Below, in pieces: positions 9,258 to 62,308 of a stretch of DNA of 64,000 nt. The stretch spans positions 119,301-183,300 of the forward strand of contig WARW01000001.1 of the NCBI GenBank assembly GCA_013387215.1. Reading direction: 5' to 3'. The DNA comes from Patescibacteria group bacterium (lineage in GTDB: Bacteria > Patescibacteriota > Microgenomatia > UBA12405). A program made the translations under genes and the position numbers. Under the pieces are notes generated by a model. It had not been told where the DNA came from, ran no database searches, and saw only the letters and a list, made by a program, of their open reading frames with translations. Numbering within the stretch: the first letter of the stretch is position 1; every line of letters starts with the position of its first letter.

Positions 9258-9324
9258 AGTGGGTATGCATGTCCCTAGATCCCCCTTGAGGGGAGATTCG
9301 AACCATTACCAGGCACTTGATTAG
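9258..9324 (-). other. tRNA 3'-half relic with duplicated tRNA-Ile 3' end
   Basis: Immediately 3' of tRNA-Ile, 14 nt of its 3' end (CATGCATACCCACT) recur after a 53-nt insert. The insert contains a T-loop-like GGTTCGAATC and a CCCCTCAAGGGGG hairpin. Confidence 0.35.
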
Positions 9325-9398
9325 TGGGTATGCATGGATTCGAACCATGGACCCCCGACTTATAAGATCGGTGCTCTAACCAACTGAGCTACATACCC
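9325..9398 (-). tRNA. tRNA-Ile with anticodon UAU (unusual in bacteria)
   Basis: Reverse complement folds as GGGTATG-TA-GCTC-AGTTGGTTA-GAGC-A-CCGAT-CTTATAA-GTCGG-GGGTC-CATGG-TTCGAAT-CCATG-CATACCC-A. Anticodon positions 34-36 read TAT. The 5' half closely resembles tRNA-Ile. No CCA encoded. Confidence 0.65.
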
Positions 9399-21523: not shown

Positions 21524-21599
21524 TCCCCTGTAGCTCAGTCGGTAGAGCGTCCGCCTGTTAAGCGGCAGGTCCTTGGTTCGAGTCCAAGCGGGGGAGCCA
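21524..21599 (+). tRNA. tRNA-Asn (anticodon GTT), CCA encoded
   Basis: TCCCCTG-TA-GCTC-AGTCGGTA-GAGC-G-TCCGC-CTGTTAA-GCGGC-AGGTC-CTTGG-TTCGAGT-CCAAG-CGGGGGA-G-CCA. Closely resembles canonical bacterial tRNA-Asn. Confidence 0.85.
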
Positions 21600-23177: not shown

Positions 23178-23459
23178 AAAATAAATTAAAAAATAAAAAT
23201 ACCCTCGCTGGTGCAACCAGAACTTATACAGCTCTGTCCAACGAGGGTATTTCTAAGTTGTATAAATTGTTCTGGTTGCATAATAATTATACTATTTTTG
23301 AATCATAAATTCACTATTTTTCTCCTAATAAACCAATAATATTAAATAGTTATTAAAGTAATAGTTACATTAATAAAATTAACCTTATAAGTAATAAATT
23401 ATTATTAATTTATTAAAGTAAAAGTTACTCTATAGTTAGAGTTACTATATACATAGTTA

Positions 23460-46186: not shown

Positions 46187-46795
46187 TTATCTCTCTTCTG
46201 AATCCACCACCTCTCCTGTTTTCACTTCTCCCTCCCTTCTATACGTTGCAAATATCACCCCGCTAGGTGTTGTTTTAGATTCAACAAGTCTAAATGCAGC
46301 CGGTTTTGTTCCTTTGTCAAACAACCGTTTTCCCGTACCCAATATAATTGGAAATATTTTTAGCCAAAATTCATCCACCAAATCATTTTCCATTAATGTC
46401 TGAACAAGATTGCCGCTTCCGTATACTTGCAAATCTGGACCGTTTGAATTCCTTATTTTTTTCAATTCATCAATATCTTTGACTACTACTGTATTTTCCC
46501 ATGATGGTTCTGTTAAAGTTTTCGAGACAACATATTTTGTTATTTTATTTACCTGTGGCCACGTTTCTGAGTGTTGAGGCCAATATCCCGCAAAAATGTC
46601 ATATGTTTTACGTCCTAGCAAGAGATCATATTCTCCTTTTATCTGTTTATCCATTTCTTTTCCCGACAATTCATCAAAGTAGGGACTTGTCCATCCCCCG
46701 TACTCAAAACCCTCGGCAGTATCTTCTTTGGATCCGCCCGGTGCCTGCATAACGCCATCAAGAGTCATAAATTCCAGAACTATTATCTTTCTCAT
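46187..46795 (-). CDS. dihydrofolate reductase-family protein (RibD C-terminal domain / YyaP-like)
   Basis: MRKIIVLEFMTLDGVMQAPGG...YGSGNLVQTL matches the RibD_C/DHFR-like family. Confidence 0.6.
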   Translation of the reverse strand: MRKIIVLEFMTLDGVMQAPGGSKEDTAEGFEYGGWTSPYFDELSGKEMDKQIKGEYDLLLGRKTYDIFAGYWPQHSETWPQVNKITKYVVSKTLTEPSWENTVVVKDIDELKKIRNSNGPDLQVYGSGNLVQTLMENDLVDEFWLKIFPIILGTGKRLFDKGTKPAAFRLVESKTTPSGVIFATYRREGEVKTGEVVDSEER

Positions 46796-47009
46796 ATTGC
46801 AGTTAAAGCTCGATAATTATTAATACTGTATTATTAATGCAGATAAAAAGAAGCAGGTTAATGAAACAATAGAAACAGGTAAGTATCACGAAAATCCAGA
46901 ATCTTTACAAAAAGCCGCGGCTCTTCTTGGATTGATTTAAGTCTGATCCAAAATCTTTTCCTTCTCGAAATCAAGCTAGGTTTGAATTATACTCTTCAAT
47001 TATTAGGGT

Positions 47010-48410
47010 ATGAATACCGGTAAAATAAATCCCAAATTATTGATATTTCTGATAGCTATTTTTATCATCGGATTTTTGTTGAGATTAAATCAATCTTTAA
47101 ATTTCCACGTTGCCTTTGCGGGGGACGCTTGCCGTGATTTTTATATGGCCAAAGAAATTGCCATTAAAGGTACTAAAAATATTCCCATTCCTGAGTGTGG
47201 CGGATGTTATTTTGCTGCAGGTAATTTACTGAAAAACTCAAATTTTTATTTTTATTTTTTATCCGTTCCATATTTTTTATTTAAATCACCAATAGGAATT
47301 CCCATTTTTAATTTAATAAATGGCTTAGTCTTTTGCTTTTTTTCGTTTCTGGTTATCCGCAAAGTTTCTAATGAAAGAATCGCCTGTTTTTCCTTAATAA
47401 TTGCTATTTTTAGTAAGTTTTTTATTGTTTATAACACCGTAACTTTTCAGTCTTATTACATTGCCACATTCGCTGCCATCATTATTTGGCTTTCATTAAA
47501 AAATAAATTTTGGAGTTATGTTTTAGCCTTAATTTTGGGTTTTATTTCTACTGAAATACATCTGGCCACACTTCCGCTTTTATTTTTTATATTTTATAGA
47601 ATAATTAGAAATTTCCCGAAATATAAAATAATTCAAAAATTATTTTTTCTATTATTAAGCATTTCATTTTTATCAATTTTCCTAAAAATTAATGTTGACT
47701 TTAGTCGTTTTGGATATATTTACAACTCTTCCATAAAACATTTTTCTTTATTAAATATTTACAATAATATTTCCAATATTTTCACCCGGGCTCTATATTT
47801 TAGAGGTACGTTTTTAATAGTTTTAATTACTGTAATTTTAAATATAAAGAAATTTAAAGTATTTTATCCGCTAATCTTCACACTTTTGTTTACTGGATTC
47901 ATGGACACTGTTGAATATAGTGGCTACTATTCGGTTTATTATTTATTATTCTTATTTACGATCGGATTTTGCATCGACTACATTTATTTAAATAATAAAT
48001 ACATTGTCATTGGAATATTTGCTGTTTTTTTATTAAAAAGCAATCCTTGTACCTTTTTTGACCAAATTAATTTCTATACTCTTAAAAACTATAAAAATGA
48101 TTGGTATCAACAATCAGTTATCTATGAAATAAACAAAATCAATCCTCTCCATCTTCCAATATCTGCTGGTTATCATGATAATCTAGAGCCTATTTACAAC
48201 TATTACTATTATGCCAACGACTACGATTTGGAAAGTTTTTTAAAAATTAAAAACGATCTTTCTCAACAAAAGTACAAAGAGGGAATTTTAATGTGTTACG
48301 ACGCTAAAGATGGTTTATGTCCCTTTGTTGAAAATAATAAAAACGAAAAAGACTTTACTTTAATCCGCACTATTGAAGGCTATCCCTTCTATTATTGGCA
48401 AAGAAAATAA
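47010..48410 (+). CDS. polytopic membrane protein, GT-C-type glycosyltransferase-like
   Basis: ~12 TM helices with a first extracytoplasmic loop carrying an acidic motif (AGDACRDFYMAKE), as in PMT/ArnT-like GT-C enzymes; weak. Confidence 0.35.
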   Translation: MNTGKINPKLLIFLIAIFIIGFLLRLNQSLNFHVAFAGDACRDFYMAKEIAIKGTKNIPIPECGGCYFAAGNLLKNSNFYFYFLSVPYFLFKSPIGIPIFNLINGLVFCFFSFLVIRKVSNERIACFSLIIAIFSKFFIVYNTVTFQSYYIATFAAIIIWLSLKNKFWSYVLALILGFISTEIHLATLPLLFFIFYRIIRNFPKYKIIQKLFFLLLSISFLSIFLKINVDFSRFGYIYNSSIKHFSLLNIYNNISNIFTRALYFRGTFLIVLITVILNIKKFKVFYPLIFTLLFTGFMDTVEYSGYYSVYYLLFLFTIGFCIDYIYLNNKYIVIGIFAVFLLKSNPCTFFDQINFYTLKNYKNDWYQQSVIYEINKINPLHLPISAGYHDNLEPIYNYYYYANDYDLESFLKIKNDLSQQKYKEGILMCYDAKDGLCPFVENNKNEKDFTLIRTIEGYPFYYWQRK

Positions 48411-48473
48411 ACTTACTCAAAAAATAGTTTCCTCCACATTTGACAAATTCCACAATTTTGGGATGATTTATTT

Positions 48474-49103
48474 ATGAAGAAACAAAAAAAGTCATCAAAA
48501 AGAATACTGTTTGCTTGCGGAATTTTTGCCTCACTTGTTTATATTTTAATTGATATTTTTGCTGCTTTTCAAACCCCTGGCTATAACTATATCAATCAAA
48601 CAATCAGTGAATTGTCTGCTGTTGGAGCACCCGCCAGACCTATTTGGATTGCGATGAGTTTTATTTTTAATCCGCTTTTGATTGCTTTTGGCATCGGGAT
48701 TCTTCTGTCAGTCCGGAAAAAATCTCTTTTTACTACCGGTGTTCTTTTGGTTTTGTGGGGATTGCTTGGTTTTGTTTGGTTATTTTTTCCGATGCATCAA
48801 AGAGGTTCTATTGGTTCCACTACCGACACCATGCATCTAGTAATGGCAGCAATCACTGTGCCACTTATGATGCTATTTATTGGTTTTGGGTCAGTTTCTT
48901 TGGGAAAAAAATTCCGTCTTTATTCAATTTTAACGATTATTTTAATGTTAATTTTTGGCGCATTAACTGGTCAACAAGCTCCAAAAGTGGCTGCTCAACT
49001 GCCAACTCCGGGTTTAGGAATAATGGAAAGAATAAGTGTTTACTCTCCCATGATTTGGGTAATGGTGTTATCCGTAATACTTTTAAAAACCAAAAAAGAT
49101 TAG
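48474..49103 (+). CDS. DUF998-family membrane protein
   Basis: Six TM helices and a TISELSAVGAP motif reminiscent of DUF998. Confidence 0.4.
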   Translation: MKKQKKSSKRILFACGIFASLVYILIDIFAAFQTPGYNYINQTISELSAVGAPARPIWIAMSFIFNPLLIAFGIGILLSVRKKSLFTTGVLLVLWGLLGFVWLFFPMHQRGSIGSTTDTMHLVMAAITVPLMMLFIGFGSVSLGKKFRLYSILTIILMLIFGALTGQQAPKVAAQLPTPGLGIMERISVYSPMIWVMVLSVILLKTKKD

Positions 49104-49657
49104 AAACTGGTGCGGTAAAGTTTTTGAGTTTCTTGCCAGCGGTTTTGATCTAAAGATTCGTCTCTATTTAAAACTTCTTGTGTCACAAAATCATAAGAAA
49201 ACCAAATTCTTTTACCATCGCCATTTTTAGCGTCACGAATGCAAGTTAAACGAAGCATAGCCATTTCAGTTCTAGAAATCGGCTCACTTTCCGGTTCTAT
49301 GGTTAAATGCAAAATTTTTTCCTCATTCAATTTAGTGTCAAAGACGACCATTCCCTCTAAAAGTTTTTCTAAATCAGTGTCAAAATTTTGCAACTCATTG
49401 CTTTCTACTGGTATATAAGAAATATTTTCATCAAATTTTTTCTTTCCTTTCAAGACAAATGGTATAGGTTTTTTATCTTTACAATATTCGATTATTTTTT
49501 TCTTAACCTCTTCTGCATTATCCTTAATGCTAAATGGTCTAACAAAAGTCACATGTAAGTGTTTTTCGTTTTGTGGATTGTCAGAAATTGTTGTTCTTAA
49601 ACCAGGTAATTCGTTTCCATGAATATGTGTTTCCAAAAAATACCTTTCTTTCGACAT
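49100..49657 (-). CDS. 2H phosphoesterase superfamily protein (LigT-like)
   Basis: Two H-x-T/S-x motifs (HVTFV and HLTIE) spaced ~80 aa apart. Confidence 0.45.
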   Translation of the reverse strand: MSKERYFLETHIHGNELPGLRTTISDNPQNEKHLHVTFVRPFSIKDNAEEVKKKIIEYCKDKKPIPFVLKGKKKFDENISYIPVESNELQNFDTDLEKLLEGMVVFDTKLNEEKILHLTIEPESEPISRTEMAMLRLTCIRDAKNGDGKRIWFSYDFVTQEVLNRDESLDQNRWQETQKLYRTSF

Positions 49658-49700
49658 TTAGATGCATTTTAACATAGATAATCATAATTGATGATTAAAT

Positions 49701-49865
49701 TTGCATATTTATCACTTTAGGTGTAAGATTCTGGCAAAAATATAATTAACTCAGTTTCGCACTGAACATTAATTATCTTTGTTCTTTAACAACTAGATCT
49801 TTTGAAAATAAGAGGTTAACCCCTCATTATATAAATAATCATATAAAAATAAAGGGAAAAGAAGG
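49701..49865 (+). promoter_or_regulatory. sigma-70-type promoter (TTGCAT-17-TAAGAT) plus ~130-nt conserved structured leader; paralogous copy at 56655..56826
   Basis: -35 TTGCAT 49701-06 and -10 TAAGAT 49724-29. The leader contains hairpins TCAGT-TTCGC-ACTGA and GAGG-TTAACC-CCTC that are conserved, with loop changes, in the second copy. Confidence 0.45.
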
Positions 49866-51998
49866 GTGATTTTTGTGAAGAGAATTATAATTTATCTTAC
49901 TATTGTGTGTCTCTTGATACTTTCAATGGCTAACACTTGCTATGGCATTGTCCTTAAGAAACCGGTTCCAGCTCCCATTTATAAGATTTACGGTTTAGAT
50001 TATTCCCCTTATATTGGAGCTAATCAAAGTCCAGGAAACAGTATTAGTGAAGACCAGATCAGAAAAACTCTGATGCAGATCAAGCCATATACGACTTGGA
50101 TTCGAACTTATGGCTGCACAGATAGTTTAGCCAATGTTGGTAAAATAGCCCATAGTTATGGACTAAAAACTGCTATTGGCGCTTGGTTGAGTAAGGATTT
50201 GGTTGCAAATGACAAAGAAATTGCCAATTTGATTAAAATTGCCAAAGCAGGACAAGCCGATCTTTTGATTGTTGGTAGCGAAACTTTGTATCGTCATGAC
50301 CTGACTGAAACTCAATTGGTTCAGTACATTAATAAGGTCAAAAACGAAGTACCAAAGATTCAAGTTGCTACGTCTGATACGGCTAATATGTTTATTCTGT
50401 ATCCATCAATCATAAATTCTATCGACAGTGTTCTTGCTAATATTTATCCTTATTGGGATGGTCAGGACATAAATAATGCTATGACTTCTCTAAACTCCCA
50501 ATATGTGCAGCTAAAAAAAATTGCTAAAGACAAAAAGGTTATTATTTCAGAAACAGGCTGGCCAAGTTCAGGTAACACTATTAACAAAGCTGTTCCTTCC
50601 GTGGAAAACGCAGCATTTTATTTCAAGAATTTCATTTCTTGGGCTAAAGCTACCAAAACCCAATATTTTTATTTTGAAGCCTTTGATGAACCCTGGAAGG
50701 GAACACCTCAGGCTCCTCAAGAAGCTCATTGGGGTATTTGGGATAACAACCTAAAGATGAAGTCCAAAATGATTGATGTTTTTCAAGGAAAAACCATCAA
50801 AAATAATTGGACTACTCCTAATCAAAAGTCGGTTTCCTTACCTGATCTAACCTTAGACAGTATTGCTTCCAATAGATATCTTGGCTCTTATGGAGATGCA
50901 AGCATATCAAGCAAGACAACCAGCAATTTTACCCTTACTTTAGGTAAAGATGTTAATACATGGGGTTCAGTTGCGGTTGATGTTGGTACTTGGGTAGGTG
51001 AGAAAGCTCTAGATTTATCTGGTTATAAGTATGCCATTATTCGTGCCAAAGGTGCCAAAGGTGGCGAGAAGTTTAGATTTGGTCTAGGTGTTGGTCCGAC
51101 AGATTATTTGTACGATAAAGGTTTAACTACTAATTGGCAAAACATAGTTATTGATCTTTCAGTTAGTATAAGAAACCTTAAGGATGTCAAACAGATTGGA
51201 TTTGAAATTGGTAGTCAATGGACAGGTAATAAAGTAGGGACAAAAATTTATATCGACGGTATAACGTTTAGTACTTCTAAAACACTAAAACCTGTACCTA
51301 CACCAACCCCGAAACCGACAATGACACCCAGTCCGACTCCGAGGCCTACGGCTACACCAAGCCCAACACCAAGTCCGACTCCTGTTCCAACCCCCAGTCC
51401 TACGCCCGTTACTACACCTAGCCCTACACCAACCCCGAAACCGACAATGACACCCAGTCCGACTCCGAGGCCTACGGCTACACCAAGCCCAACACCAAGT
51501 CCGACTCCGAGGCCTACGGCTACACCAAGCCCAACACCAAGTCCGACTCCTGTTCCGCTTCCAGATCTTCCAATATCAAGCATCACAGGCAACAGTTTTT
51601 GTTCCTATGGTGACGCTGGTTTATCCGATTATGCTAGTAATAGCTCTTTCGCAATAAACTTGCTCAGAAACACTGATACTTGGGGTTCGGTTGCAGTCAA
51701 TGTTGGTACTGGTGCTAATGTAACTGCTTTAGACCTATCTGGCTACAAGTATGCGATTATTCGTGTCAAAGGTGCTGTCGGAGGCGAAAAATTCAGATTT
51801 GGTCTGGGTTATGGTCCTACTGACTTTTATTACAATCAAGGTTTAACAACAGATTGGCAGGATATCAAAATTGATATAAGCAATTTTTCAAGAAACTTGA
51901 AAGATGTTAAGCAGATCGGTTTTGAAATAGGCAGTCAGTGGACTGGTAATGCTGTTGGGACCAAAATATATATTGGTGGAATAAAATTCACCGATTAA
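49866..51998 (+). CDS. secreted glycoside hydrolase family 17-like (beta-1,3-glucanase-like) enzyme with PT-rich linkers and two copies of a ~130-aa C-terminal domain
   Basis: Signal peptide. The catalytic domain ends in the [11 protein letters not shown] signature (the ETGWPS motif of GH17). Then a tandem PT-rich linker and two ~130-aa domains (SYGDA...TWGS...[29 protein letters not shown]...GLTT.WQ.I.ID...[25 protein letters not shown]). Confidence 0.55.
51296..51560. repeat. 126-bp tandem repeat (2.3 copies) encoding a Pro/Thr/Ser-rich linker
   Basis: Unit ACACCAACCCCGAAACCGACAATGACACCCAGTCCGACTCC... at 51300-51383 repeated identically at 51426-51509, plus a partial third copy; lies in-frame inside the GH17 gene. 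Confidence 0.65.
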
Positions 51999-52020
51999 TT
52001 TTCAAAAGATCTCAGGTTGA

Positions 52021-52070
52021 TACCGCTGGTTTACACAGTAATGTGTACATAAATCCAGCGGTATTTTTTT
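52021..52070 (+). terminator. rho-independent terminator (paralogous to the one at 58907..58946)
   Basis: TACCGCTGG...inner hairpin TACACAgtaaTGTGTA...CCAGCGGTA followed by TTTTTTT. Confidence 0.55.
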
Positions 52071-52131
52071 AAAATCTTTTCTTACATTTTTCTTTAAACA
52101 ATCTCATAATTAGAAGTTATCTTAAAAAGAT

Positions 52132-52467
52132 ATGGCCCAAGAAATTAAATTAATTGTTTATCCCGTTAAAGACATAGAAACTGCCAAGAAATTTTATTCA
52201 AAATTCTTAGGAGTTGATCCTTATGTTGACGGTCTTTATTATGTCGGATTCAGAATAGGTGATCAGGAAATAGGTTTGGATCCAAACTCCATATCTCCCA
52301 CACCTATTGGGTACATAAACGTTGAAAATATAAGCACTTATTTGCAAGACATGGTGGATGCTGGAGCCCAAATTGTGGAAGACATAAAAGACGTTGGACA
52401 AGGATTACAGGTTGCTCAAATAAAAGATGCCGATGGCAACATTTTAGGTCTCAGGCAATTTCCTTAA
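52132..52467 (+). CDS. glyoxalase/bleomycin-resistance (VOC) family protein
   Basis: 111-aa single VOC module pattern (KDIETAKKFYSKFLG ... DADGNILGL). Confidence 0.55.
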   Translation: MAQEIKLIVYPVKDIETAKKFYSKFLGVDPYVDGLYYVGFRIGDQEIGLDPNSISPTPIGYINVENISTYLQDMVDAGAQIVEDIKDVGQGLQVAQIKDADGNILGLRQFP

Positions 52468-52547
52468 TCATTTAACTTTTTAATAGCCCCAAGGTGTTTT
52501 TTTCTTATTTCCATTGATCCCTTTGCCATAATTAGTTATCATAAATT

Positions 52548-53003
52548 ATGAACTTGAAAGTGCTTGTGGGCAGCGGAGAAAAAATCGGACGGCTTGTTTT
52601 GCCGTTTTTAATAATTGGTTTGGTTTTGAATATTCTAGATCCTTCTTTGTTCAGCGTTGGTGGTCCCTCAATGGTTTTAAAAACAGTTTCAATTATTGTT
52701 TTGATTCCGGGAATAATAAATTGGGCTTGGTCAGTAATTTTAATCTTAACCAAAATACCTCAAAAAAAACTCATCACCACTGGTCCTTATTCCTTAGCTA
52801 AACATCCTTTATACACTGGTGTCGCCTTGCTAGTCCTGCCTTGGGTGGGATTTCTTCTTAACACCTGCTTGGGTGTCTTAATTGGCATCATTGTTTATAT
52901 TGGTTCAAGAATATATTCGCCTGAAGAAGAAAAAATATTGTCAAAAACTTTTAGCAATTCCTGGAATCAATATTGTAAAAAAGTGAAAATACCGTGGCTG
53001 TAA
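52548..53003 (+). CDS. isoprenylcysteine carboxyl methyltransferase / PEMT-like membrane methyltransferase
   Basis: Four TM helices and LITTGPYSLAKHPLYTGVALLVL (the HP.Y.G motif of the ICMT/PEMT/NnrU family), plus a C-terminal EEE motif. Confidence 0.5.
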   Translation: MNLKVLVGSGEKIGRLVLPFLIIGLVLNILDPSLFSVGGPSMVLKTVSIIVLIPGIINWAWSVILILTKIPQKKLITTGPYSLAKHPLYTGVALLVLPWVGFLLNTCLGVLIGIIVYIGSRIYSPEEEKILSKTFSNSWNQYCKKVKIPWL

Positions 53004-53139
53004 ATAAACATCTAATAATATAAAAAGACACCTTAGGATTTGGTACTTTGTTTGCGTTTCCTCTTCTCGTTGCTTGGCAAATAAATAAAATAAACACGTA
53101 TCTTGTTGATAAATAATCAATAAAAATATATCATTAAGT

Positions 53140-53370
53140 ATGACTAAAGAACAAAATACTTCAGAATGCTGCGGTGGAAATAAAAAACATACTTATCATC
53201 ATTATAATCATGGCAGTTCAGACGCCATTTATGGGCTGGGTATCATTGGCTCTTTATTTTATTTTTTGCAGGGCGCCACTACTTTTACAGCGGTAATCAT
53301 TGGTATTGGAAAAGCAATTTTTTGGCCAGCTTTCTTAATATTCAGAGTACTCACAATTCTGCATCTCTAA
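53140..53370 (+). CDS. small membrane protein with Cys/His-rich N-terminus
   Basis: SECCGGNKKHTYHHYNHGSS followed by two TM helices; possible metal-binding tail. Confidence 0.3.
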   Translation: MTKEQNTSECCGGNKKHTYHHYNHGSSDAIYGLGIIGSLFYFLQGATTFTAVIIGIGKAIFWPAFLIFRVLTILHL

Positions 53371-53413
53371 ATTTATCTTAAGATTTTTTCCAAATACGCC
53401 TTACAATTAAAAA

Positions 53414-53986
53414 ATGTGCGACCAATACGCTTTCCATCCAAGCCCAGATTTTTATTCCCGATTTTCTTTAAATAATAAACTGCCGGCTCTTTTAAGTGTT
53501 AACAAAGCCGCTCCAGACAGTTTTATGCCAATTATTTTTTGGGAAAATGGCTCAAAAATAGATATTATGAGGTGGGGATTTGTACCTCAATGGGCAAAAA
53601 ATCTGGATTTTGGCACCAGATTGTTTAATGCCAAAGCTGAAACTGTTTTGGAAAACAAAGCCTATTGTGGTTCATTCAATTCTTGCCGTTGCCTTATTCC
53701 GGTAAATAACTTTTCTTTTTCTAAAAGCAATCGGTCTTTTAAGCTCAAATACGAATCTATGTTTTGTCTGGCTGGTCTTTATTCGCTTTGGGAATCGCCC
53801 GATGGCAGCTTTTTGCCCACCTTCACGATTTTGACCACTCATTCTAATTATTTGATTCGGCCTTTTTCCGACCGTATGCCAATTGTTATTTCTAAAAAAG
53901 ATGAAAGGCTTTGGCTCAACCCCATAGCACCGTCTGGAAAGTTATTTCCCTTAATGCGGCCTTATTCTTTGGAACTAATGATCTAA
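53414..53986 (+). CDS. SOS-response-associated peptidase (SRAP/YedK/DUF159)-like abasic-site processing protein
   Basis: Begins MC (catalytic Cys2 after Met removal) and contains IMRWGFVPQWAK (the mRWGl.P.W motif of SRAP). Confidence 0.55.
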   Translation: MCDQYAFHPSPDFYSRFSLNNKLPALLSVNKAAPDSFMPIIFWENGSKIDIMRWGFVPQWAKNLDFGTRLFNAKAETVLENKAYCGSFNSCRCLIPVNNFSFSKSNRSFKLKYESMFCLAGLYSLWESPDGSFLPTFTILTTHSNYLIRPFSDRMPIVISKKDERLWLNPIAPSGKLFPLMRPYSLELMI

Positions 53987-54050
53987 AATTCATTTTATAA
54001 ATTATTTATCAACCAATTGAATTTTGCCCTTAATTAAGTAAAATTTATAC

Positions 54051-54740
54051 ATGGAATATATAAATAATATAATCAGCGATAATGTCACTGATGAACCTAC
54101 TATTCCTCAACCAGTTCAGCCAATAATTACTCCGCCAAATAACCCGCAGCCAATTTTGGAACAACCACCGATCATCCCTCAGAATAACAAAAATAAAAAC
54201 ACAAAATTTTATATTATTTCCGGTGTTTTGGTTTTATTTTTATTAACGCTTTGCTATCTATTAGCTTTTCAATCTAAAAGAATCACCAGCCTGCTTCCCC
54301 AAAAGAAAACAACTCCTGTTCCAATTCCGACTGTTACTGTTGTCAAAACTACTCCTACTGCTAGTTCTAAAGATGCTTATTTAAAAATGAAAGCAGAAGA
54401 AGACCATCTTAATACTTTTGATGAATATTTAGTTTTTTTGAATAAATACGGCACCAAAGAAAAAAATGAAGAAGTAAATAAAGGTTTGGGTCAAATAAAT
54501 TTACTGCCTACTGGTTTTAAAGAGCAATTGATGAGTATGGTTAAATCAGGATCGCCTTTACTGAAAGACATCACTAATGTGGATGAAAAAGTTGAAGATA
54601 ATGTTTCCCTCTTAAAAATTACCAGCAATAACCCGCAACTTCAAGGAACCGTCAAACTTATTCTTGAAAACGGAATCTGGAAACTTGATAGTGAGGTTTG
54701 GGATCAATCACTAAAACCAAGTCCAAGTGTCACACCATAA
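54051..54740 (+). CDS. membrane-anchored protein with Pro-rich N-terminal region
   Basis: Proline-rich cytoplasmic N-terminus, single TM helix and an extracytoplasmic domain. Confidence 0.35.
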   Translation: MEYINNIISDNVTDEPTIPQPVQPIITPPNNPQPILEQPPIIPQNNKNKNTKFYIISGVLVLFLLTLCYLLAFQSKRITSLLPQKKTTPVPIPTVTVVKTTPTASSKDAYLKMKAEEDHLNTFDEYLVFLNKYGTKEKNEEVNKGLGQINLLPTGFKEQLMSMVKSGSPLLKDITNVDEKVEDNVSLLKITSNNPQLQGTVKLILENGIWKLDSEVWDQSLKPSPSVTP

Positions 54741-54763
54741 TCCAAGTCAGCTACAATATTGAA

Positions 54764-55072
54764 ATGATAAATTCTTGTAAAGCCTGTGGAAAATGCTGCA
54801 AATTATTTTTAATAAATCTCTCTCAAAAAGAATATCGATCAAAAGAATATCAAACCATGTTCCAAGAATACGGTTTTATTGATGATTTCTCTAAAGCCAG
54901 AAAATGCGGAGCTAATTTTTTAGCCAAAAATATCGATGAAAGTTGTATTTATTTAAAAGATAATAAATGTAGTATTCATCAATCTCGTCCTCAAGTTTGC
55001 CGTCATTTCTTTTGCACTTCAAAATCTAAAAAATTTGCCGGTATGATCCAAATCATTAAATCTAGTCTTTAA
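54764..55072 (+). CDS. YkgJ-family putative Fe-S/zinc cluster protein (CxxCGxCC)
   Basis: MINSCKACGKCCKLF...C...CRHFFC pattern typical of UPF0153/YkgJ. Start set at the internal Met just downstream of the preceding gene stop. Confidence 0.45.
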   Translation: MINSCKACGKCCKLFLINLSQKEYRSKEYQTMFQEYGFIDDFSKARKCGANFLAKNIDESCIYLKDNKCSIHQSRPQVCRHFFCTSKSKKFAGMIQIIKSSL

Positions 55073-55085
55073 ATATTTTTAAGCA

Positions 55086-55116
55086 CCAAAAATCCCCTCA
55101 AAAGAGGGGATTAATT
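55086..55116 (-). terminator. rho-independent terminator of the RRM gene
   Basis: In minus orientation AATCCCCTC-TTTTGA-GAGGGGATT followed by TTTTT. Confidence 0.55.
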
Positions 55117-55133
55117 GAAGTTTTAAAAACAAA

Positions 55134-55457
55134 TTAGAATCTGTTTCCGCCGCCGAAACCACCGCGGTTGCCGCCATTAGAGTAATTATCTCTTCGTGGA
55201 GGTCTTTCTTCCATTGGTCTGGCTTCATTAACCTTGACGGTACGACCCTCAAGTTCTTTTTCGTTCCACATCTCAATTCCAGCATTTGCTTCTTCGTCAG
55301 TTGACATTTCTACAAATCCGAAACCTTTTGATCGACCGGAAAATTTATCTTTAATAACTATTGCTGATACAACTGTACCAACTTGAGCGAACGCTGCTCT
55401 TAAACCTTCATCAGTGGTTTGAAAAGACAAGCCGCCGACATACAACTTTTTTGCCAT
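55134..55457 (-). CDS. RRM-type RNA-binding protein with glycine-rich tail
   Basis: RNP2 LYVGGL and RNP1 KGFGFVEM motifs; C-terminal RGG/GGF tail. Confidence 0.7.
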   Translation of the reverse strand: MAKKLYVGGLSFQTTDEGLRAAFAQVGTVVSAIVIKDKFSGRSKGFGFVEMSTDEEANAGIEMWNEKELEGRTVKVNEARPMEERPPRRDNYSNGGNRGGFGGGNRF

Positions 55458-55827
55458 TATTTTGCAAACTTATAAATGTAGCGACCTCTCTTTACATCAA
55501 AAATCTCTACATCGCTATTATACAGCACATATTAATTTATAGTTAATGATTCGTTTTGCCGACACTAATAAAGTCAAAAGCCGATTCATTCATTAAATCG
55601 TTGCTTATCTAAATTTATTTAAGCTCAATTTATACCTAAGTTTGACATTAATTTTATCGTTTAGTAAAATCACACACTTTTAAAATAAACTAAAGCGTTT
55701 ATTTAAAAAGAATTTGTACCTTAAAAAAGAAAGAGAGCTGCCAAAATAGGTATTATCCTTTGTGTATTTCATACACCTTGGTATTGCCTATTTTGGTGAT
55801 AAAAATAAATTGATTGGAGGATTTTTT

Positions 55828-56280
55828 ATGAGTAACTTGTTAAAAGTAGCTATTGGTATTGTGGCAACTGTGCTTCTTGGTTTCTTCTTTTTTTGGTTAT
55901 TGTGTTTGAATCATGTCAGCGTCAATCACATTGGTATTGCCTATGACTCTGGAAATGGCACTATAACTATACAAAAGAAACCTGGTTGGTATTTAACCTC
56001 GCCGATGGTAAGAACAACTTGTTTAAGCACTGTCCCAATGAAAGTCACCATTCCCTCAGAAGCCCAAGTAATCATTTCTAAAGTTGTTCGGTTTAAACCA
56101 GAAGGTGTCGATGAATATATTCGGCTTCAAGGTTTTTATTACAACATGGATTCAAGCCTAAATAGCGTATTACTTGGCTATGCTTTTTCCGGAAAAGACT
56201 ATCCTTTCCTAGAAATAATGCAGGAAGCTGCTCCTGAAAATATTAATGTGGACCCGCTTTATAAGGTAAAAGGTAACTGA
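55828..56280 (+). CDS. membrane-anchored protein with SPFH/band-7-like N-terminal segment (short)
   Basis: GGAGG RBS 8 nt upstream of the ATG at 55828. TM helix, then HIGIAYDSGNGTI...KPGWYLTSPMV resembling the start of SPFH domains; too short for a full SPFH. Confidence 0.35.
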   Translation: MSNLLKVAIGIVATVLLGFFFFWLLCLNHVSVNHIGIAYDSGNGTITIQKKPGWYLTSPMVRTTCLSTVPMKVTIPSEAQVIISKVVRFKPEGVDEYIRLQGFYYNMDSSLNSVLLGYAFSGKDYPFLEIMQEAAPENINVDPLYKVKGN

Positions 56281-56282
56281 TT

Positions 56283-56546
56283 ATGAAAAAGTATTTGATT
56301 TTAAATCGATGGAAACTATCGGTTGTTACAATTTGCACTTTAATAATTATTGTAATTTTATTTAATAAGGCTTGGATTGTGAATCTTGTTTGGATGAATG
56401 CTGCCGCAATTGGCCATACTTTTCACCAACAAGGTCCTCACACTTCAATTGCTATTTTGATAGTAGCTTTTTACATTTTCATTATTTGGAACCTGTTCTG
56501 GAAAATTTATTCTCTTATCGCCCGGATTAAACCATTTATTAGCTGA
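56283..56546 (+). CDS. small membrane protein
   Basis: 87 aa, three TM helices; starts 3 nt after the upstream stop. Confidence 0.3.
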   Translation: MKKYLILNRWKLSVVTICTLIIIVILFNKAWIVNLVWMNAAAIGHTFHQQGPHTSIAILIVAFYIFIIWNLFWKIYSLIARIKPFIS

Positions 56547-56654
56547 CTCTCTTTTTTTTATTATTGACCTATCAAAGCTTGGTTTTTAGCCAATCCATTT
56601 GATGGGTCTTTTTTTTTATATAAAAATAAAAAAACTTCACAAACTTCCAAAAAT

Positions 56655-56826
56655 TTGCATATTTACGACTTCGGGTGTAATATCCTGGCAAAACAATAAT
56701 TAGTTCAGTTTTTGCACTGAAATTTAACTATTGGTACTTTAACAACTAAAGATCTTTTGAACTCAAAAATATGAGGTTTAGCCTCTTTATATATAGCTCC
56801 AAATAAAAATAATATAAAAGGGATAG
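56655..56826 (+). promoter_or_regulatory. paralogous promoter (TTGCAT-17-TAATAT) and conserved leader upstream of the LRR surface-protein gene
   Basis: -35 TTGCAT 56655-60 and -10 TAATAT 56678-83. The leader aligns with 49701..49865, including hairpins TCAGT-TTTTGC-ACTGA and GAGG-TTTAG-CCTC. Confidence 0.45.
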
Positions 56827-58875
56827 GTGATTTGTATGAAAAAGCTAAGTTTTATCTTAGTTGTTTTCCTTATTCTGTCATTTTTGGCCCCGTCCAGTTT
56901 TGCTGCCACCAAAACTACTGATTCAACAGTAATTAAGTTCGCCAGCAAAGTCTTGGAAAAAGCAGTCAGAGAAGAAATCAAAAAACCAACAGGAAATATC
57001 TTTAAAAAAGATGTTTTATCTATTAAAAGTTTAGAAATAAACTTTACTCCAATTGGAAAAATAGATGGCATCGAAAATCTCCAAAATTTAGTTTATCTTC
57101 ATCTTGAAAATGGTGAAATAAGAGACATTAGTCCGCTTAAATCATTAAAAAAACTTGAAGATCTTGACTTGTGGGATAACTATATTACCGATCTTACCCC
57201 ATTATTAGGATTAACTAAATTAACAAGCTTGGAACTTAACGATAATTATTTTTGCGACCTTACTCCGCTTAAAGGCTTGATAAATCTTACTCATCTTTAC
57301 TTGGTAAACAGTAGATCTGGTAATAAAATCTCAGATATTACTCCACTTTCCAACCTGAAGAATATAATTTCAATTGCCTTGGCTTGTAATAATGTAAGTA
57401 ACGTTGAGCCCTTAAGTAAGCTTCCCAAGATTCAAGAATTGTATCTACATCACAATCAAATCCAAAATGTAGCACCGCTTGGTAAAATAAAAACCTTGCA
57501 GATATTATATTTGGAAGATAACCCGATCACAGACTATAAACCATTAAAAGCTATTTACAGTAAGCTCTACAAAAAAGATTTTACTTTAAACAGTCCGGTT
57601 GCAACTCCAAAACCAAGTTCCACTCCAGACTCTACTCCAACGCCAGAAATTACTCCGACTCCTGGACCTTCATTAATTCCAACTCGGATTTTGGATCCAA
57701 CCAAAGTAATCACATTTCCCGACAAAAATTTTGAGCAAACCATCAGAAAAGCGATCAACAAACCTACAGGAGATATCCTTAAAAAGGATATTTTTTCCAT
57801 CACTCAGCTTTATGGATGGAGTGGAATAAAAAGTATTGAAGGGATTCAAAATCTCGAGAATTTGACTACTATTGAAATTCTTGACGGTCAAATTTCCGAC
57901 TTAACTCCTTTAAAATCGCTCAAACATTTAACCCGTCTCAATCTTTGGAACCAGCGTATTACAGACATTAGTCCACTAGCCAGTATACCCACTCTTGAAG
58001 AGCTTATTCTTAGTGATAACTACTTTTTTGACCTTAGTCCCTTAAAAGGCTTGGTTAATTTAAAAAAACTTTCTATTTTTTACAGCCGGATTGGCGCTGG
58101 ATTGTCAGATATTTCTCCAATATCATCTTTGACAAATCTTGAAACCTTGTCCTTAGCTGATAATGTCATCACCGATTTAAGCCCTTTAAGTAAATTGCCC
58201 AAAATACGGGAACTATATTTAATGAATAATAAAATCAGCAATGTTGAGCCATTGAGTAATCTCAAAACTTTAAAAGTTTTATATCTTAAAGATAATCCGG
58301 TTGTTAGCTTTGCACCTCTAAAAAATATGTTTAGTCAATTAATCGATAAAGATTTTACTCTATCAAGTCCAACGTTTTCGCCTCCAGTTGCTATTAACTA
58401 TTCCAGCACTGATCTGCTTATGGCTGATATCTCCAAATATGGCTTTTGTCATTATGGCGATGCTGTCATAGCAGATGAGAAAAGTAACAGCCAGTTTACT
58501 ATGATTTTAAAGAAGAATGATGATACCTGGGGTTCGATTGCTAGGGATATTGGTGAAGGTCCGGGTGGAAAAAATATGGATTTATCCATGTATAAATATG
58601 TAATTCTTCACATGAAAGGCCTAAAAGGTGGCGAAGAGTTCATGTTTGGTTTTGGCTATGGGCCGACAGATTATTATTATAGTCAGGGTTTAACTACTGA
58701 TTGGCAGGACATTGTTATAGACATTTCTAATAACAAAAGTCTTAAAAGTGCTTATCAATTTGGGTTTGAAATTGGAACTCAATGGACAAATAATGAAGTC
58801 GGTGCGACTATTTTTATTGACGGCATCAAATTTTCCAATCAGTTGCCAACTGGACCCTACACCACCCCTAAATAG
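56827..58875 (+). CDS. secreted leucine-rich-repeat (internalin-like) protein with internally duplicated LRR module and the shared ~130-aa C-terminal domain
   Basis: Signal peptide, then two ~230-aa blocks of 22-residue LRRs (LxxLxxLxLxxNxIxDIxPL) each preceded by a KPTGdI.KKD cap and separated by a PT-rich linker. The C-terminal domain is homologous to the two in the GH17 protein. Confidence 0.6.
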   Translation: MICMKKLSFILVVFLILSFLAPSSFAATKTTDSTVIKFASKVLEKAVREEIKKPTGNIFKKDVLSIKSLEINFTPIGKIDGIENLQNLVYLHLENGEIRDISPLKSLKKLEDLDLWDNYITDLTPLLGLTKLTSLELNDNYFCDLTPLKGLINLTHLYLVNSRSGNKISDITPLSNLKNIISIALACNNVSNVEPLSKLPKIQELYLHHNQIQNVAPLGKIKTLQILYLEDNPITDYKPLKAIYSKLYKKDFTLNSPVATPKPSSTPDSTPTPEITPTPGPSLIPTRILDPTKVITFPDKNFEQTIRKAINKPTGDILKKDIFSITQLYGWSGIKSIEGIQNLENLTTIEILDGQISDLTPLKSLKHLTRLNLWNQRITDISPLASIPTLEELILSDNYFFDLSPLKGLVNLKKLSIFYSRIGAGLSDISPISSLTNLETLSLADNVITDLSPLSKLPKIRELYLMNNKISNVEPLSNLKTLKVLYLKDNPVVSFAPLKNMFSQLIDKDFTLSSPTFSPPVAINYSSTDLLMADISKYGFCHYGDAVIADEKSNSQFTMILKKNDDTWGSIARDIGEGPGGKNMDLSMYKYVILHMKGLKGGEEFMFGFGYGPTDYYYSQGLTTDWQDIVIDISNNKSLKSAYQFGFEIGTQWTNNEVGATIFIDGIKFSNQLPTGPYTTPK

Positions 58876-58906
58876 TTTTCAAAAGATCTTTGGTTTATAC
58901 CGTGGG

Positions 58907-58946
58907 TTGACACTTTTGTGTTAATAAATCCCACGGTATTTTTTTA
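58907..58946 (+). terminator. rho-independent terminator (paralog of 52021..52070)
   Basis: TACCGTGGG...TTGACACttttGTGTTAA...CCCACGGTA followed by TTTTTTT. Confidence 0.55.
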
Positions 58947-59010
58947 TCTCTCCCGCAATTAATTGATTGCATTTACAATCTTTTAATTTTTGGGAGAGAT
59001 AACCTTTTAG

Positions 59011-59802
59011 CTAACGTCTTTCCGTTAATAAATCGCTGTGATTAGTTTTTGGATGTGTTGGTAATGGCGGTTCTGGTTGTTCAAAGGTAATCCATGTACC
59101 ATCAATTAGCCATGTTCTCGGTGCCTTGTAATATGGAGTATAGAGATCTTTTTTTGTTCCCGGACTGGCTTGATTTAGCCACCAATCAGGATAATTTACT
59201 GGTTCTCCTTCCAAACCGGATGGATCAATTTTTGATACTTCTACATTTTCCAGTCGCCAATTTAAAATCTTATCATCATCAGATACCATGCCCCATCGCT
59301 TTGCCGTAATCCAACTGACTTCCACAATTTCTTTACGATATTTAATTATCGGCATAATATCTCCATGCGACGCGCAATCTACTACCAAAAATGGTCCCTC
59401 CCATATTCCATCGGGCTTTTTTAGCCATACTTTTAATCCAATGTCTGCAGGTGACATTAATGCCACCCCGTCTATATATCCGTCTAGAGACAAGCCTCGA
59501 ATTTTTGCATTAGCCGACATTGCCCCTGGTCCATAAAATACTGCATTTCCATATGCCCAAATGGGAGCTGGAGCAAACCATGAATTTACTGACGGATAAA
59601 ACGGTATCCATACTAATTTTCTCCACCAATATCCATTAGTAACATCTCCGTCTTTACACTTTGGATCAAATTGTTCAACGCATCCTCCACCCGTATTTAA
59701 GGTTGCTGAGCTTGGAACAAAAAGTGTTACAGCCAAAATCAAACCTGCCGTTTTTCTAAACATTCTACCCTCCATTCTGTAAAGGTTCTTAGTCGGCAAC
59801 AA
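59011..59802 (-). CDS. secreted hypothetical protein
   Basis: Probable start at MFRKTAGLILAVTLFVPSSA (signal peptide); Trp/Pro-rich mature protein; no confident domain. Confidence 0.35.
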   Translation of the reverse strand: MLPTKNLYRMEGRMFRKTAGLILAVTLFVPSSATLNTGGGCVEQFDPKCKDGDVTNGYWWRKLVWIPFYPSVNSWFAPAPIWAYGNAVFYGPGAMSANAKIRGLSLDGYIDGVALMSPADIGLKVWLKKPDGIWEGPFLVVDCASHGDIMPIIKYRKEIVEVSWITAKRWGMVSDDDKILNWRLENVEVSKIDPSGLEGEPVNYPDWWLNQASPGTKKDLYTPYYKAPRTWLIDGTWITFEQPEPPLPTHPKTNHSDLLTERR

Positions 59803-60088
59803 TTTGCAGACTAACCGAGCATAAAAAATGTTTATTAAAAATCAATAAGTTCTTCTTAATAAATGTGTATATGAATAAAACGGTATTTTTTTTGTAAAAA
59901 TTATTATCTTGCAAAGATAGGGCATAATTAGTAAACTTGGGCGTGATTAATAATACAGATGCCGGTCCTAGCTCAAGTATTCTGTTTTATCTTTCGCAGG
60001 CTCATTAAAATTGCGGAAAAGGTATCTAAATTAAAAGGGGGTCAATACACCAGGTCAATTTAAAACACTAAAGAAAGGTGTGTTGACG

Positions 60089-60697
60089 ATGAAAAAAATC
60101 TTAATAATTGCTTTGATTGTTGCAGTTCTCTTGTTGTTTTTATCTTTCAAATTGAATAATGTTGTGGCTCCGATTGCTGACATGACAAAACAACTTAAAC
60201 CAGGACCAATGGTTATTATTCCTGACCCGCTTGTAATTGCCAAAGAAATCCAGCATCTAGCCAAACTTGAAACTGCTTCCCTTTATCTCACCAGAACTCT
60301 TCGTGTCGAAAAAGACAATAACCGTTTATGGGGAATTTTTGGAGAAAGATTAATCTTTGTGGCTAATGGGGAAGTAACGGCTGGAGTTGATTTGAGTCAA
60401 CTTCAAGAAAACCAAATACAAGTTATTGATCAAACTACTATTTATATTCAATTGCCCGAAGCTGAAATTTTCACTGTTTCGCTTGATAATAACAATTCTT
60501 ATATTGCCAGCCGGGAAAAAGGAATATTAGCCGTCTCTGATTCTCAATTGGAAACAAGAACTCGAAGAAGAGCTCAACAAGAAATCGAAAAAGCAGCACT
60601 TGAATCAAATCTTTTGGACACTGCCAATCAAAGTGCCCAGGATGACATCAGGAGTCTTTTAAAAAAACTTGGTTTTGTAAATATTAAATTCATCTAA
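60089..60697 (+). CDS. DUF4230-family membrane-anchored protein
   Basis: N-terminal TM helix. Pattern IFVANGEVTAGVDLSQL...IYIQLP is typical of DUF4230. Confidence 0.4.
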   Translation: MKKILIIALIVAVLLLFLSFKLNNVVAPIADMTKQLKPGPMVIIPDPLVIAKEIQHLAKLETASLYLTRTLRVEKDNNRLWGIFGERLIFVANGEVTAGVDLSQLQENQIQVIDQTTIYIQLPEAEIFTVSLDNNNSYIASREKGILAVSDSQLETRTRRRAQQEIEKAALESNLLDTANQSAQDDIRSLLKKLGFVNIKFI

Positions 60698-60769
60698 AAA
60701 AAACAACCTTTCCGCAATTACTAAACCGCCTGGAATTAGTAGAAATTTTCTACAACTATTCCAGGCTTT

Positions 60770-61285
60770 TTAATTTCTTTTATCTAAAATTTTCTTTACA
60801 TCTTCTCTGACCACAGCATAATCTTTTTTGGTAACCAAAGAAATTTCTTGGCATAAGTGTTCCAAAATTTGTTCCACCAAATTTGCATCATTTTTATTCA
60901 ATGTCAGAATATTTTTCCAATAAAAGATTAAAACCGACACCATTCTTTGAGGATTATTGGAGTAAAATTCCTCTTTTGCTCGAATAATATCGTATTCATC
61001 TTCACTGGTTTTGCTTTTTAAATCTTTTAAAATCTGGGCGATTTCTCCAGTCGTAAGCACTTTTCTGATACCAGACAGCTTAAAATTTTTTAAAGGTATT
61101 GACGCTGTAAACACCTTATCTGTTCCACTGGTAGGTTCATAGTAAACATACATTGCGCCATTATCTTCATCTTCTTTTACAGCTGTTACCTTGTAAATAT
61201 AAGAGGAATCAATAATATAGTCTCCCGCTGCTAACTCAAAGTTCATAATTTTCCTTGGTAAATTCTTAACGATAGCTAAAGCCAC
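60770..61285 (-). CDS. CarD/CdnL-family transcription factor
   Basis: N-terminal RNAP-interacting Tudor-like segment (FELAAGDYIIDSSYIYKVTAV) followed by a CarD C-terminal helical domain (LSGIRKVLTTGEIAQILKDL). Confidence 0.5.
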   Translation of the reverse strand: MALAIVKNLPRKIMNFELAAGDYIIDSSYIYKVTAVKEDEDNGAMYVYYEPTSGTDKVFTASIPLKNFKLSGIRKVLTTGEIAQILKDLKSKTSEDEYDIIRAKEEFYSNNPQRMVSVLIFYWKNILTLNKNDANLVEQILEHLCQEISLVTKKDYAVVREDVKKILDKRN

Positions 61286-61373
61286 TAAATCTATCTTTAT
61301 TAATAAAATTATACCAAAATTCGAAGTTTCTAACCAGCTGCAGCTTAACGTTTTATAATTATATTAAAATTTA

Positions 61374-62168
61374 TTATCTATTTTTCAGCTTTAATTCTCT
61401 CAAATGCCAAACAGCCATTCCCAAAAATGCCAGCGATAAAATTAATGCTGGCAGCCATCCGCCAGTCTCTGGATTTGTACCAAAATACGGTTTAATTATA
61501 TCTGCCAATGCTAGAGAAAAAATTTCAATAAATCCTAAAATAAAAATAATTGGAGCCAGTACAATTCCAATTCCCTTGTTTTTAATCATCTTAAAAGAAA
61601 TTATTAAAAATGCCGGCATAATAAAACAAAGATCAAGAATATATATTGAATACAGAAATTCAATTTTTATACCCTGCGTAACCAATGGAATTAATTGGCT
61701 TATCCACAGGGGAATAAAAACTAACGGCTGAAGTATAGCCAAAACTACTGAAAAATTGCGGGTGATTTTTGGTATCTCAATATTATCAATTTGATCTTTA
61801 TCAATATTTTGAACTGCCGAAAAGATAGACCAAAATGACAAAGAAAAAATAGCCATATAGATAAAATATAAAGGATTGTAGACCCGTTCTATTACATAAA
61901 TTCCATATCCATAAAAAAAGTATCCCAAAATTCCCAAAATAATAATCTGTTTTTTAAAATCATTATTTTTCAGTCTATAAATCAAAACCAATGCTGTTAC
62001 AGAGGCAATAATGGTTAACAAATCAGGTGTAAACACAGCTGGCATTAAATTAGGGCTGACAACTTTTTGATATATATTCATATCAAAAACTCCGATTATT
62101 CCAGCAATCAAAGCCAAAATAGAACAGGTAACCCATAAGGTTTTATTAAATTTCAACTGATTAATCAT
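61374..62168 (-). CDS. polytopic membrane protein
   Basis: Eight TM helices; no motif. Confidence 0.35.
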   Translation of the reverse strand: MINQLKFNKTLWVTCSILALIAGIIGVFDMNIYQKVVSPNLMPAVFTPDLLTIIASVTALVLIYRLKNNDFKKQIIILGILGYFFYGYGIYVIERVYNPLYFIYMAIFSLSFWSIFSAVQNIDKDQIDNIEIPKITRNFSVVLAILQPLVFIPLWISQLIPLVTQGIKIEFLYSIYILDLCFIMPAFLIISFKMIKNKGIGIVLAPIIFILGFIEIFSLALADIIKPYFGTNPETGGWLPALILSLAFLGMAVWHLRELKLKNR

Positions 62169-62308
62169 TTGACTAAATTATAATTCACTTTGTTTTAAAA
62201 CAATAATCTATTTTATTTGACTATGCCTTACTTTAGGCTTATAATTTACTATTATCTATTCTTAACCTCTCCCTTTAGAAGTGTTTAGATATTTTCTGGT
62301 CAAAATTT

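Follow-up and report, generated by a model that had tools for sequence, protein, structure and literature searches.

In a 64,000-nucleotide (nt) stretch of contig WARW01000001.1 from an uncultured Patescibacteria group bacterium (hereafter the window), two genes, A and B, encode proteins that carry signal peptides and end in the same domain. Their middles are unrelated: a glycoside hydrolase of family GH17 in gene A and internalin-like leucine-rich repeats (LRRs) in gene B. We found that the shared 5′ and 3′ ends of these genes are complementary to each other and that this complementarity shows covariation, an observation that goes beyond an earlier note on the same DNA. The conserved helix predicted from these ends is rather probably a pairing between the start and the end of the messenger RNA (mRNA), similar to that of Bacillus subtilis hbs and situated here in transcription units for secreted proteins with a putative glycan-binding domain. 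Genes A and B are paralogues, each a complete transcription unit, in an uncultured bacterium of low GC content, and its nearest relatives are genomes of the Shapirobacteria type from the candidate phyla radiation (CPR).

Each leader is complementary to the bases that follow the stop codon

The window contains four exact copies of a 12-mer, AGATCTTTTGAA: each of the two leaders has one on the + strand, and each of the two stop codons is followed at once by one on the − strand. Extension of this 12-mer with RNAduplex gave a helix of 18–20 base pairs (bp) between the 5′ untranslated region (UTR) and the bases just past the stop codon. For gene A, the 5′ arm is located at 49790..49809 (CAACTAGATCTTTTGAAAAT) and the 3′ arm at 51998..52019 (ATTTTCAAAAGATCTCAGGTTG), where it begins with the stop codon’s last base. 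For gene B, the 5′ arm is located at 56744..56761 (AACTAAAGATCTTTTGAA) and the 3′ arm at 58878..58895 (TTCAAAAGATCTTTGGTT), 2 nt after the stop codon; all four arms are on the + strand, and both arms of each gene fall downstream of the predicted promoter and upstream of the terminator. When mini-transcripts were folded to minimum energy, the helix formed alongside the leader hairpins and the terminator, and it abutted the terminator stem. With the arms paired next to the terminator in this way, the transcript would therefore be a panhandle with its ends side by side.

The predicted duplex energies are −22.1 kcal/mol for gene A and −22.8 kcal/mol for gene B, and in a shuffle test none of 500 shuffled sequences reached the observed energy of either gene. 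Such pairing is not a general property of the window: when 65 window genes were ranked by the pairing of their 5′ and 3′ flanks, gene B came first and gene A third, and only these two and possibly a DUF4230 gene stood out.

The DUF4230 gene (60080-60697, + strand) has complementarity between its own UTRs, at 60007-60023 (AAAATTGCGGAAAAGGT) and 60706-60719 (ACCTTTCCGCAATT), in sequence unrelated to the arms of genes A and B. Its duplex, at −28.3 kcal/mol, ranks second of the 65 genes; the exact core is 11 nt, so the pairing is possibly due to chance. The 3′ arm again lies between the stop codon and the gene’s own terminator.

Compensatory changes maintain the predicted helix in five genomes

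The helix was found in six transcription units from five genomes, comprising genes A and B and the GH17 orthologues at loci L016, L017, L018 and L025. The first three of these orthologues encode proteins that are 64% (L016), 60% (L017) and 49% (L018) identical to that of gene A, and the L018 element is identical to those of L001, which is labelled a Candidatus Shapirobacteria metagenome-assembled genome, and L019. Duplex energies in the orthologous units are −19.9 (L016), −19.0 (L017), −17.4 (L018) and −20.5 kcal/mol (L025). The shuffle test, which covered all units but L018, again gave 0/500 for L016 and L017, and 2/500 for L025. Across the set, cognate arms pair with a mean of −20.2 kcal/mol, compared with −14.1 kcal/mol for non-cognate arms. 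The distal half of the helix varies among genomes yet stays complementary, and in L018 a C:G pair of the core has been replaced by A:U.

The alignment used for covariation was made by hand, because bulges that differ between units kept MAFFT from placing the arms in register. In this alignment of six sequences, fitted to the structure and with bulged bases removed, 97% of cells pair (30–53% in slid controls), 9 of the 17 helix pairs have changed on both sides, and 0/500 shuffles reach the result. At L018 the 5′ arm precedes a gene for a 187-aa protein, the 3′ arm follows the GH17 gene, and the helix therefore brackets a two-gene operon. The intervening gene, between the shared leader and the GH17 gene at 9397-9960 of L018, encodes a protein without a Pfam family.

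Mismatches within the helix comprise five G·U cells and no A·C cells, which argues for pairing in the sense RNA and not for a DNA repeat. This bears on an alternative in which the arms are DNA inverted repeats and a site-specific recombinase flips the coding segment between a fixed promoter and a fixed terminator, turning the gene ON or OFF. Matched inverted repeats do bracket each gene inside its promoter–terminator span, the cargo of phase-variable systems typically consists of surface proteins, and two serine recombinase genes are present in the window. Against such inversion, all six units of the five genomes are in the ON orientation, as seen in assemblies only; the arms tolerate bulges as well as the sense-strand G·U mismatches; and no dyad symmetry is found in the arms beyond the hexamer AGATCT. 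The recombinases are of large serine integrase types, 15–28 kb away, and one of them is beside a transfer RNA (tRNA) gene, so they are more likely part of an integrated element. No dedicated invertase was found near the genes among the Pfam-scanned flanking open reading frames (ORFs) of 49100-63580 (with 46187-49103, 54698-55457 and 61374-62168 left out). DNA inversion is thus the weaker rival to mRNA end pairing, and we consider it improbable.

Functionless remnants of a duplication, or the terminal repeats of a mobile cassette, might also account for two paralogous units with similar flanks in one genome. The flanks, however, are more conserved (83% identity between genes A and B) than the DNA of the domain (71–72%), and they persist in four other genomes whose proteins are merely 49–64% identical. 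This retention across relatives, together with the difference in identity, indicates that the flanks are old and constrained. Their complementarity has moreover been kept via compensatory changes, and the homology of A and B extends beyond both arms, as far as the promoter on one side and the U tract on the other, so the arms do not mark where an element ends. We therefore give an origin as remnants very little credence and retain mRNA end pairing as the preferred explanation.

None of these RNA elements was found at GH17 genes of other lineages (L023, L024, L026, L028 and L029), whether or not the domain was present. A weak and unrelated duplex at L029, the energy of which was reached by 7/300 shuffles, was taken as chance. 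Three matches from a metagenome scan with the 3′-arm-plus-terminator pattern, at an RNase Y-like gene, pyrH and a kynureninase-like gene, were likewise set aside as chance.

Genes A and B share a promoter-like block, a leader and a terminator

Upstream of each leader is a promoter-like block on the + strand, which reads TTGCAT, 17 nt, TAAGAT at gene A (49700..49731) and TTGCAT, 17 nt, TAATAT at gene B (56654..56685), and which would serve as the promoter of the unit. Within the window this 32-nt pattern is present only at genes A and B. The GH17 orthologues of L016, L017, L018 and L025 have the same promoter-like block, the same leader core and the same terminator.

The gene A leader (49732..49874, + strand) consists of a hairpin (CAGUUUCGCACUG), the 5′ arm, a second hairpin (GAGGUUAACCCCUC) and a Shine-Dalgarno-like GGGTGA. 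Over about 190 nt the leaders of A and B are 83% identical, and one or both hairpins are missing from the leaders of L016 and L017. A comparison of the leader with Rfam returned no family and microRNA noise only. Directly after the 5′ arm comes a short GC hairpin and then a U/A-rich run (GAGGUU..CCUC, UUUAUAUA), at 49813-49826 in gene A and at 56773-56785 in gene B. It recurs at about 9335-9350 in L018 and about 485-500 in L025, is absent from L016 and L017, and was flagged as terminator-like in gene B by a simple scanner. This hairpin could act in attenuation or merely serve as a structural spacer.

The 3′ ends, 51996-52071 in gene A and 58873-58946 in gene B, are 83% identical. Each contains a compound element on the + strand, at 52020..52071 for gene A (fold z = −4.5) and at 58897..58946 for gene B (fold z = −4.75), with folding energies of −22.7 and −23.2 kcal/mol. 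Both fold into a long outer stem that contains an inner hairpin together with a conserved AUAAA bulge; a 7-U tract follows, and 8 of 20 pairs show compensatory changes among five sequences. With a stable, GC-containing stem and a U tract directly downstream of the gene, these elements are, as judged from their sequence, predicted intrinsic (Rho-independent) terminators. A covariance model of the 3′ element, R1, scored 93.8 bits at gene A and 85.3 bits at gene B. In the window it matched only the ends of these two genes, and across 138 kb of the window plus fetched loci it matched only the ends of genes in this set. A third terminator-like site at 59857-59893 (73% identity) was rejected, as it has neither the stem nor the arm and gives no R1 match.

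The earlier note had described a shared leader and homologous compound terminators, and had proposed that the two genes are cassettes with common ends and swapped middles. The leader and terminators are borne out, with the common fold of the latter and the promoter-like block added. The cassette proposal holds for genes A and B, as whole units that have their 5′ and 3′ ends in common and differ in the middle, and our data carry it no further than these two genes. Since homology reaches from the promoter block as far as the U tract, the whole transcription unit was duplicated. The signal peptide, the domain and the C-terminal tail of gene B are closer to the GH17 protein P0003 than to gene A, which suggests that B is a GH17-plus-domain gene with a replaced middle. 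From these sequence comparisons, gene B was most likely, on small differences, derived from such a gene by exchange of the catalytic middle for LRRs.

Gene A and gene B encode a GH17 enzyme and an internalin-like protein

Gene A (49875..51998, + strand) probably starts at GTG 49875, in an ORF open from 49866, and gene B (56836..58875, + strand) probably starts at ATG 56836, in a frame open from 56827; both starts were assigned by leader alignment. The gene A product is 100% identical to the NCBI protein P0152. The public annotation of P0152 (690 aa) places the start at Met-21, counted from GTG 49866, and thereby cuts off the signal peptide.

The product of gene A is composed of a signal peptide, a GH17 glycosidase (about 49980-50790, + strand; Pfam GH17, E 1.4e-15), a first copy of the domain, a Pro/Thr linker and a second copy. 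The Pro/Thr-rich linker, 282 nt between the two copies (51276..51557, + strand), contains a 126-nt tandem duplication at 51290-51382 and 51416-51508, the copies of which are 97% identical; the local GC content rises to 0.40 there, and the duplication looks like a recent expansion of the linker. An antisense ORF at 51248-51592 with GLGV repeats is a by-product of this duplication.

The product of gene B, identical to P0002, has a signal peptide, two internalin-like LRR modules (about 56947-57561 and 57688-58341, + strand; Pfam LRR_4, E 8e-49), one CBM30-like domain and a 12-aa tail, NQLPTGPYTTPK. None of the NCBIfam internalin models matched gene B above its cut-off (the best, internalin_A, gave 219.6 bits against a cut-off of 1600), and by sequence the LRR type is the only thing that gene B has in common with class 1 internalins. 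A sortase signal in the LPxGPY tail was considered and rejected, as NQLPTGPYTTPK is followed by the stop codon without an LPXTG register and without a hydrophobic segment. No LRR-plus-domain orthologue of gene B was found among 5.8 billion proteins.

The shared domain belongs to the CBM30/CBM11 group

The earlier note had placed three copies of one domain in the two proteins, at 50868-51995 and 58444-58852, which was right to within a few codons. We locate them at 50838-51275 (A-d1), 51558-51995 (A-d2) and 58411-58836 (gene B), all on the + strand, each a CBM30-like copy of ~140 aa. In tblastn the copies were recovered at E 1e-57 to 1e-45, and no fourth copy was found in the 64 kb window. Protein identity is 67% between A-d1 and A-d2 and 53–57% between the copies of A and B; A-d1 is 68% identical to the domain of the orthologue P0153, and the copy of gene B is 62% identical to that of P0003.

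A word-indexed search with the three-copy alignment returned one relative only. When 1.84 billion cluster representatives were searched exhaustively with HMMER, 720 relatives were recovered; 149 of these reached E ≤ 1e-10, and many have 2–7 copies of the domain. Against Pfam, close relatives matched CBM30 near threshold and more distant relatives matched CBM30, CBM_11 and CIA30 strongly; P0004, P0007 and P0012 matched CBM30 at E 7e-11 to 7e-5. Among 31 aligned family members, 23 matched CBM30, 11 matched CBM_11 and five matched CIA30. A profile of these 31 members matched the solved CBM30 of Clostridium thermocellum (1wmx, 2c24) at E 1.6e-13, with the motifs KGxxGGExF and TTxWQ in alignment, and it matched other solved modules at about 1e-5 (CBM11) and about 3e-4 (CBM4-2). 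The structure modelled from A-d2 is a beta-jelly-roll sandwich that superposes on solved CBM30 and CBM11 modules, and CIA30/NDUFAF1 was also among its top structural matches. Given the Pfam matches of the relatives and the profile match to solved CBM30 and CBM11, we assign the domain by homology to a divergent subfamily of the CBM30/CBM11/CIA30 group of beta-sandwich carbohydrate-binding modules.

The repeats, the homology and the predicted fold are observed. By its homology to CBM30/CBM11 the domain is very probably a glycan-binding module, whereas the binding itself and the ligand are inferred. The earlier note had guessed at a carbohydrate- or cell-surface-binding anchor and had suggested that profile and structure comparison might reveal a CBM-like beta-sandwich, and both suggestions agree with what we found. 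The domain is not of a new kind, since it belongs to a known group, an outcome that the note had named beforehand as making it ordinary. Nor does a broad modular surface-protein family emerge. Members of the close subfamily, recognizable by the loop motif GLGxGPTD, are almost always joined to GH17 (P0003, P0005, P0153, P0154, P0155 and P0031), the exceptions encountered being the LRR protein of gene B and a linker-only lipoprotein, P0024.

If the domain did not bind glycans, it could be a module for protein interaction or assembly, as in CIA30, or a spacer that displays the N-terminal part. The structural match to CIA30/NDUFAF1, the five of 31 relatives that touch the CIA30 model and the failure of the window copies to match a Pfam CBM directly would all be compatible with such a role. 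Yet by sequence the domain is closest to CBM30, followed by CBM11, members of the close subfamily are usually joined to a glycoside hydrolase, and tandem multiplication of copies is typical of CBMs, so that we hold such a role to be improbable and continue to regard the domain as a glycan-binding module.

The window copies differ from CBM30 itself (Pfam PF21582; the CelJ/Cel9D-Cel44A module; PDB 1WMX, 2C24) in several respects. They score below its Pfam model and have GLG-x-GPTDYYY in place of the loop that follows the GGE strand, and the partner is GH17, which acts on beta-1,3-glucan, or an LRR protein, and not a cellulase, in a CPR-type bacterium. Sequence similarity to CBM11 (PF03425; C. 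thermocellum Lic26A-Cel5E; PDB 1V0A) is lower than to CBM30, with no direct model match. Listeria InlB is an internalin that is anchored non-covalently through GW modules. Gene B resembles InlB-type internalins in combining an N-terminal LRR region with a C-terminal module by which the protein would attach to a surface polymer; its anchor is a CBM30-like beta-sandwich and not GW, WxL or an LPXTG signal.

Other features of the window

The two serine recombinase genes (Resolvase + Recombinase + Zn_ribbon_recom) are located at 21524-23216 and 33507-35063, and one abuts a tRNA-Asn gene (21524-21599). A low-GC stretch (0.27–0.32, about 22–40 kb) with GmrSD/HNH-type genes contains or adjoins them, and this is probably one or two integrated mobile elements. 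A tRNA-Ile gene with the anticodon UAU, at 9324-9398, adjoins two tRNA-Met(CAU) genes; tRNA-Ile(UAU) is an unusual way for bacteria to read AUA. Between genes A and B, a 107-aa ORF (55134-55457, − strand) appears by eye to encode a glycine-rich RNA-binding protein of the RRM type. The divergent neighbour of gene A (49100-49657, − strand) encodes a 2H/LigT-like phosphoesterase (2_5_RNA_ligase2, E 1e-6). A link of either the RRM-type ORF or the LigT-like phosphoesterase to the RNA elements is pure speculation.

Discussion

Together, the complementarity and its covariation, both of which are observed, suggest a model in which about 20 nt of the 5′ UTR would pair with about 20 nt directly past the stop codon. 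At the protein level, the two domain copies of gene A would hold a GH17 enzyme active on beta-1,3-glucan on its glucan, and the domain of gene B would attach an internalin-like LRR binding surface to this same glycan, either on the cell’s own envelope or on a partner cell. The most likely effect of the helix would be control of mRNA decay, with the leader shielded from 5′-end-dependent or endonucleolytic attack. Because the 3′ arm begins at the stop codon, it would be covered by a ribosome that terminates there, and the helix could therefore couple decay or re-initiation to translation. We put forward, tentatively and with less confidence than the pairing itself, that a CPR lineage uses, for a small set of secreted glycan-binding proteins, a conserved mRNA panhandle that ties mRNA survival or re-initiation to termination, and that the frame of promoter and leader at one end and domain and terminator at the other is a reusable cassette for different middles (GH17, LRR).

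Several points weigh against this interpretation. The covariation evidence is good, not final, because the alignment is fitted to the structure and holds six sequences. A DNA inverted repeat that was kept matched via recombination would likewise yield matched arms, and the arms of A and B, in closely similar units, cross-pair nearly as stably as they do with their cognates. A simple promoter and terminator scanner flagged neither the promoter-like blocks nor the terminators, and the promoter, the ends of the transcript, the helix in vivo and its effect are, like glycan binding and the ligand, deduced from the DNA. As to the domain, whole proteins A and B gave no Pfam CBM match at E ≤ 1, an isolated copy gave none at E ≤ 0.01, and the window copies match no NCBIfam model; CBM30 membership of the window copies is therefore transitive. 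The identity gap from which we derive gene B from a P0003-type gene is small (62% versus 53–57%).

The arms might instead form a stalk for processing by RNase III, cleavage of which would remove the structured leader and the terminator and thereby set the lifetime of the mature mRNA. Stalks of this type are known from ribosomal RNA (rRNA) precursors and from the early mRNAs of phage T7, and the helix here encloses the whole coding region in the manner of rRNA processing stalks. Its 18–20 bp are close to a minimal RNase III substrate, and RNase III action on paired bacterial UTRs is discussed in the literature on precedents of such pairing. The bulges and internal loops vary among genomes, though, and no feature separates a stalk from simple protection, so we consider processing unlikely and keep to the model of a protective or regulatory panhandle.

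The RNA result weighs more than the domain result. What is new is a 5′/3′ UTR interaction with covariation across several uncultured genomes, present at two genes with unrelated middles. It offers a compact, testable model for the control of expression through pairing of mRNA ends, and an initial view of post-transcriptional control in a phylum for which experimental genetics hardly exists. For annotation, the gain is that a previously unannotated C-terminal module of CPR GH17 enzymes is linked to the CBM30/CBM11 group, and the same link suggests that these tiny, probably host-attached bacteria may use this same glycan anchor to display an LRR adhesin.

Pairing of the start of a message with its end is a rare but already known feature of bacterial mRNAs. 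To our knowledge, the citable 5′/3′ UTR interactions of bacteria are those of hbs and icaR, each confined to one genus. In Staphylococcus aureus icaR the 3′ UTR reportedly pairs with the Shine-Dalgarno region and represses translation. The units described here resemble icaR in that two UTRs of one bacterial mRNA would pair, and differ from it in that the 5′ arm lies 17–70 nt upstream of the Shine-Dalgarno sequence, leaving the latter free. The icaR UTR pairing is among the subjects of PMC7049690 and PMC7821165. In B. subtilis, a 14-bp interaction that joins the 5′ UTR of the hbs mRNA to its 3′ UTR modulates cleavage by RNase Y (Braun, Durand and Condon 2017, PMC5737220). The likeness to hbs is closer: in both cases a long-range helix joins the leader and the 3′ UTR of one mRNA, close to the terminator, with room to modulate the access of a ribonuclease. 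The helix predicted here is longer (18–20 bp versus 14 bp), is known by sequence prediction, and involves another sequence, other genes and another phylum. Here the 3′ arm starts at the stop codon, the helix can enclose an operon of two genes and, unlike that of hbs, it is common to two unrelated coding regions and to orthologues in five genomes.

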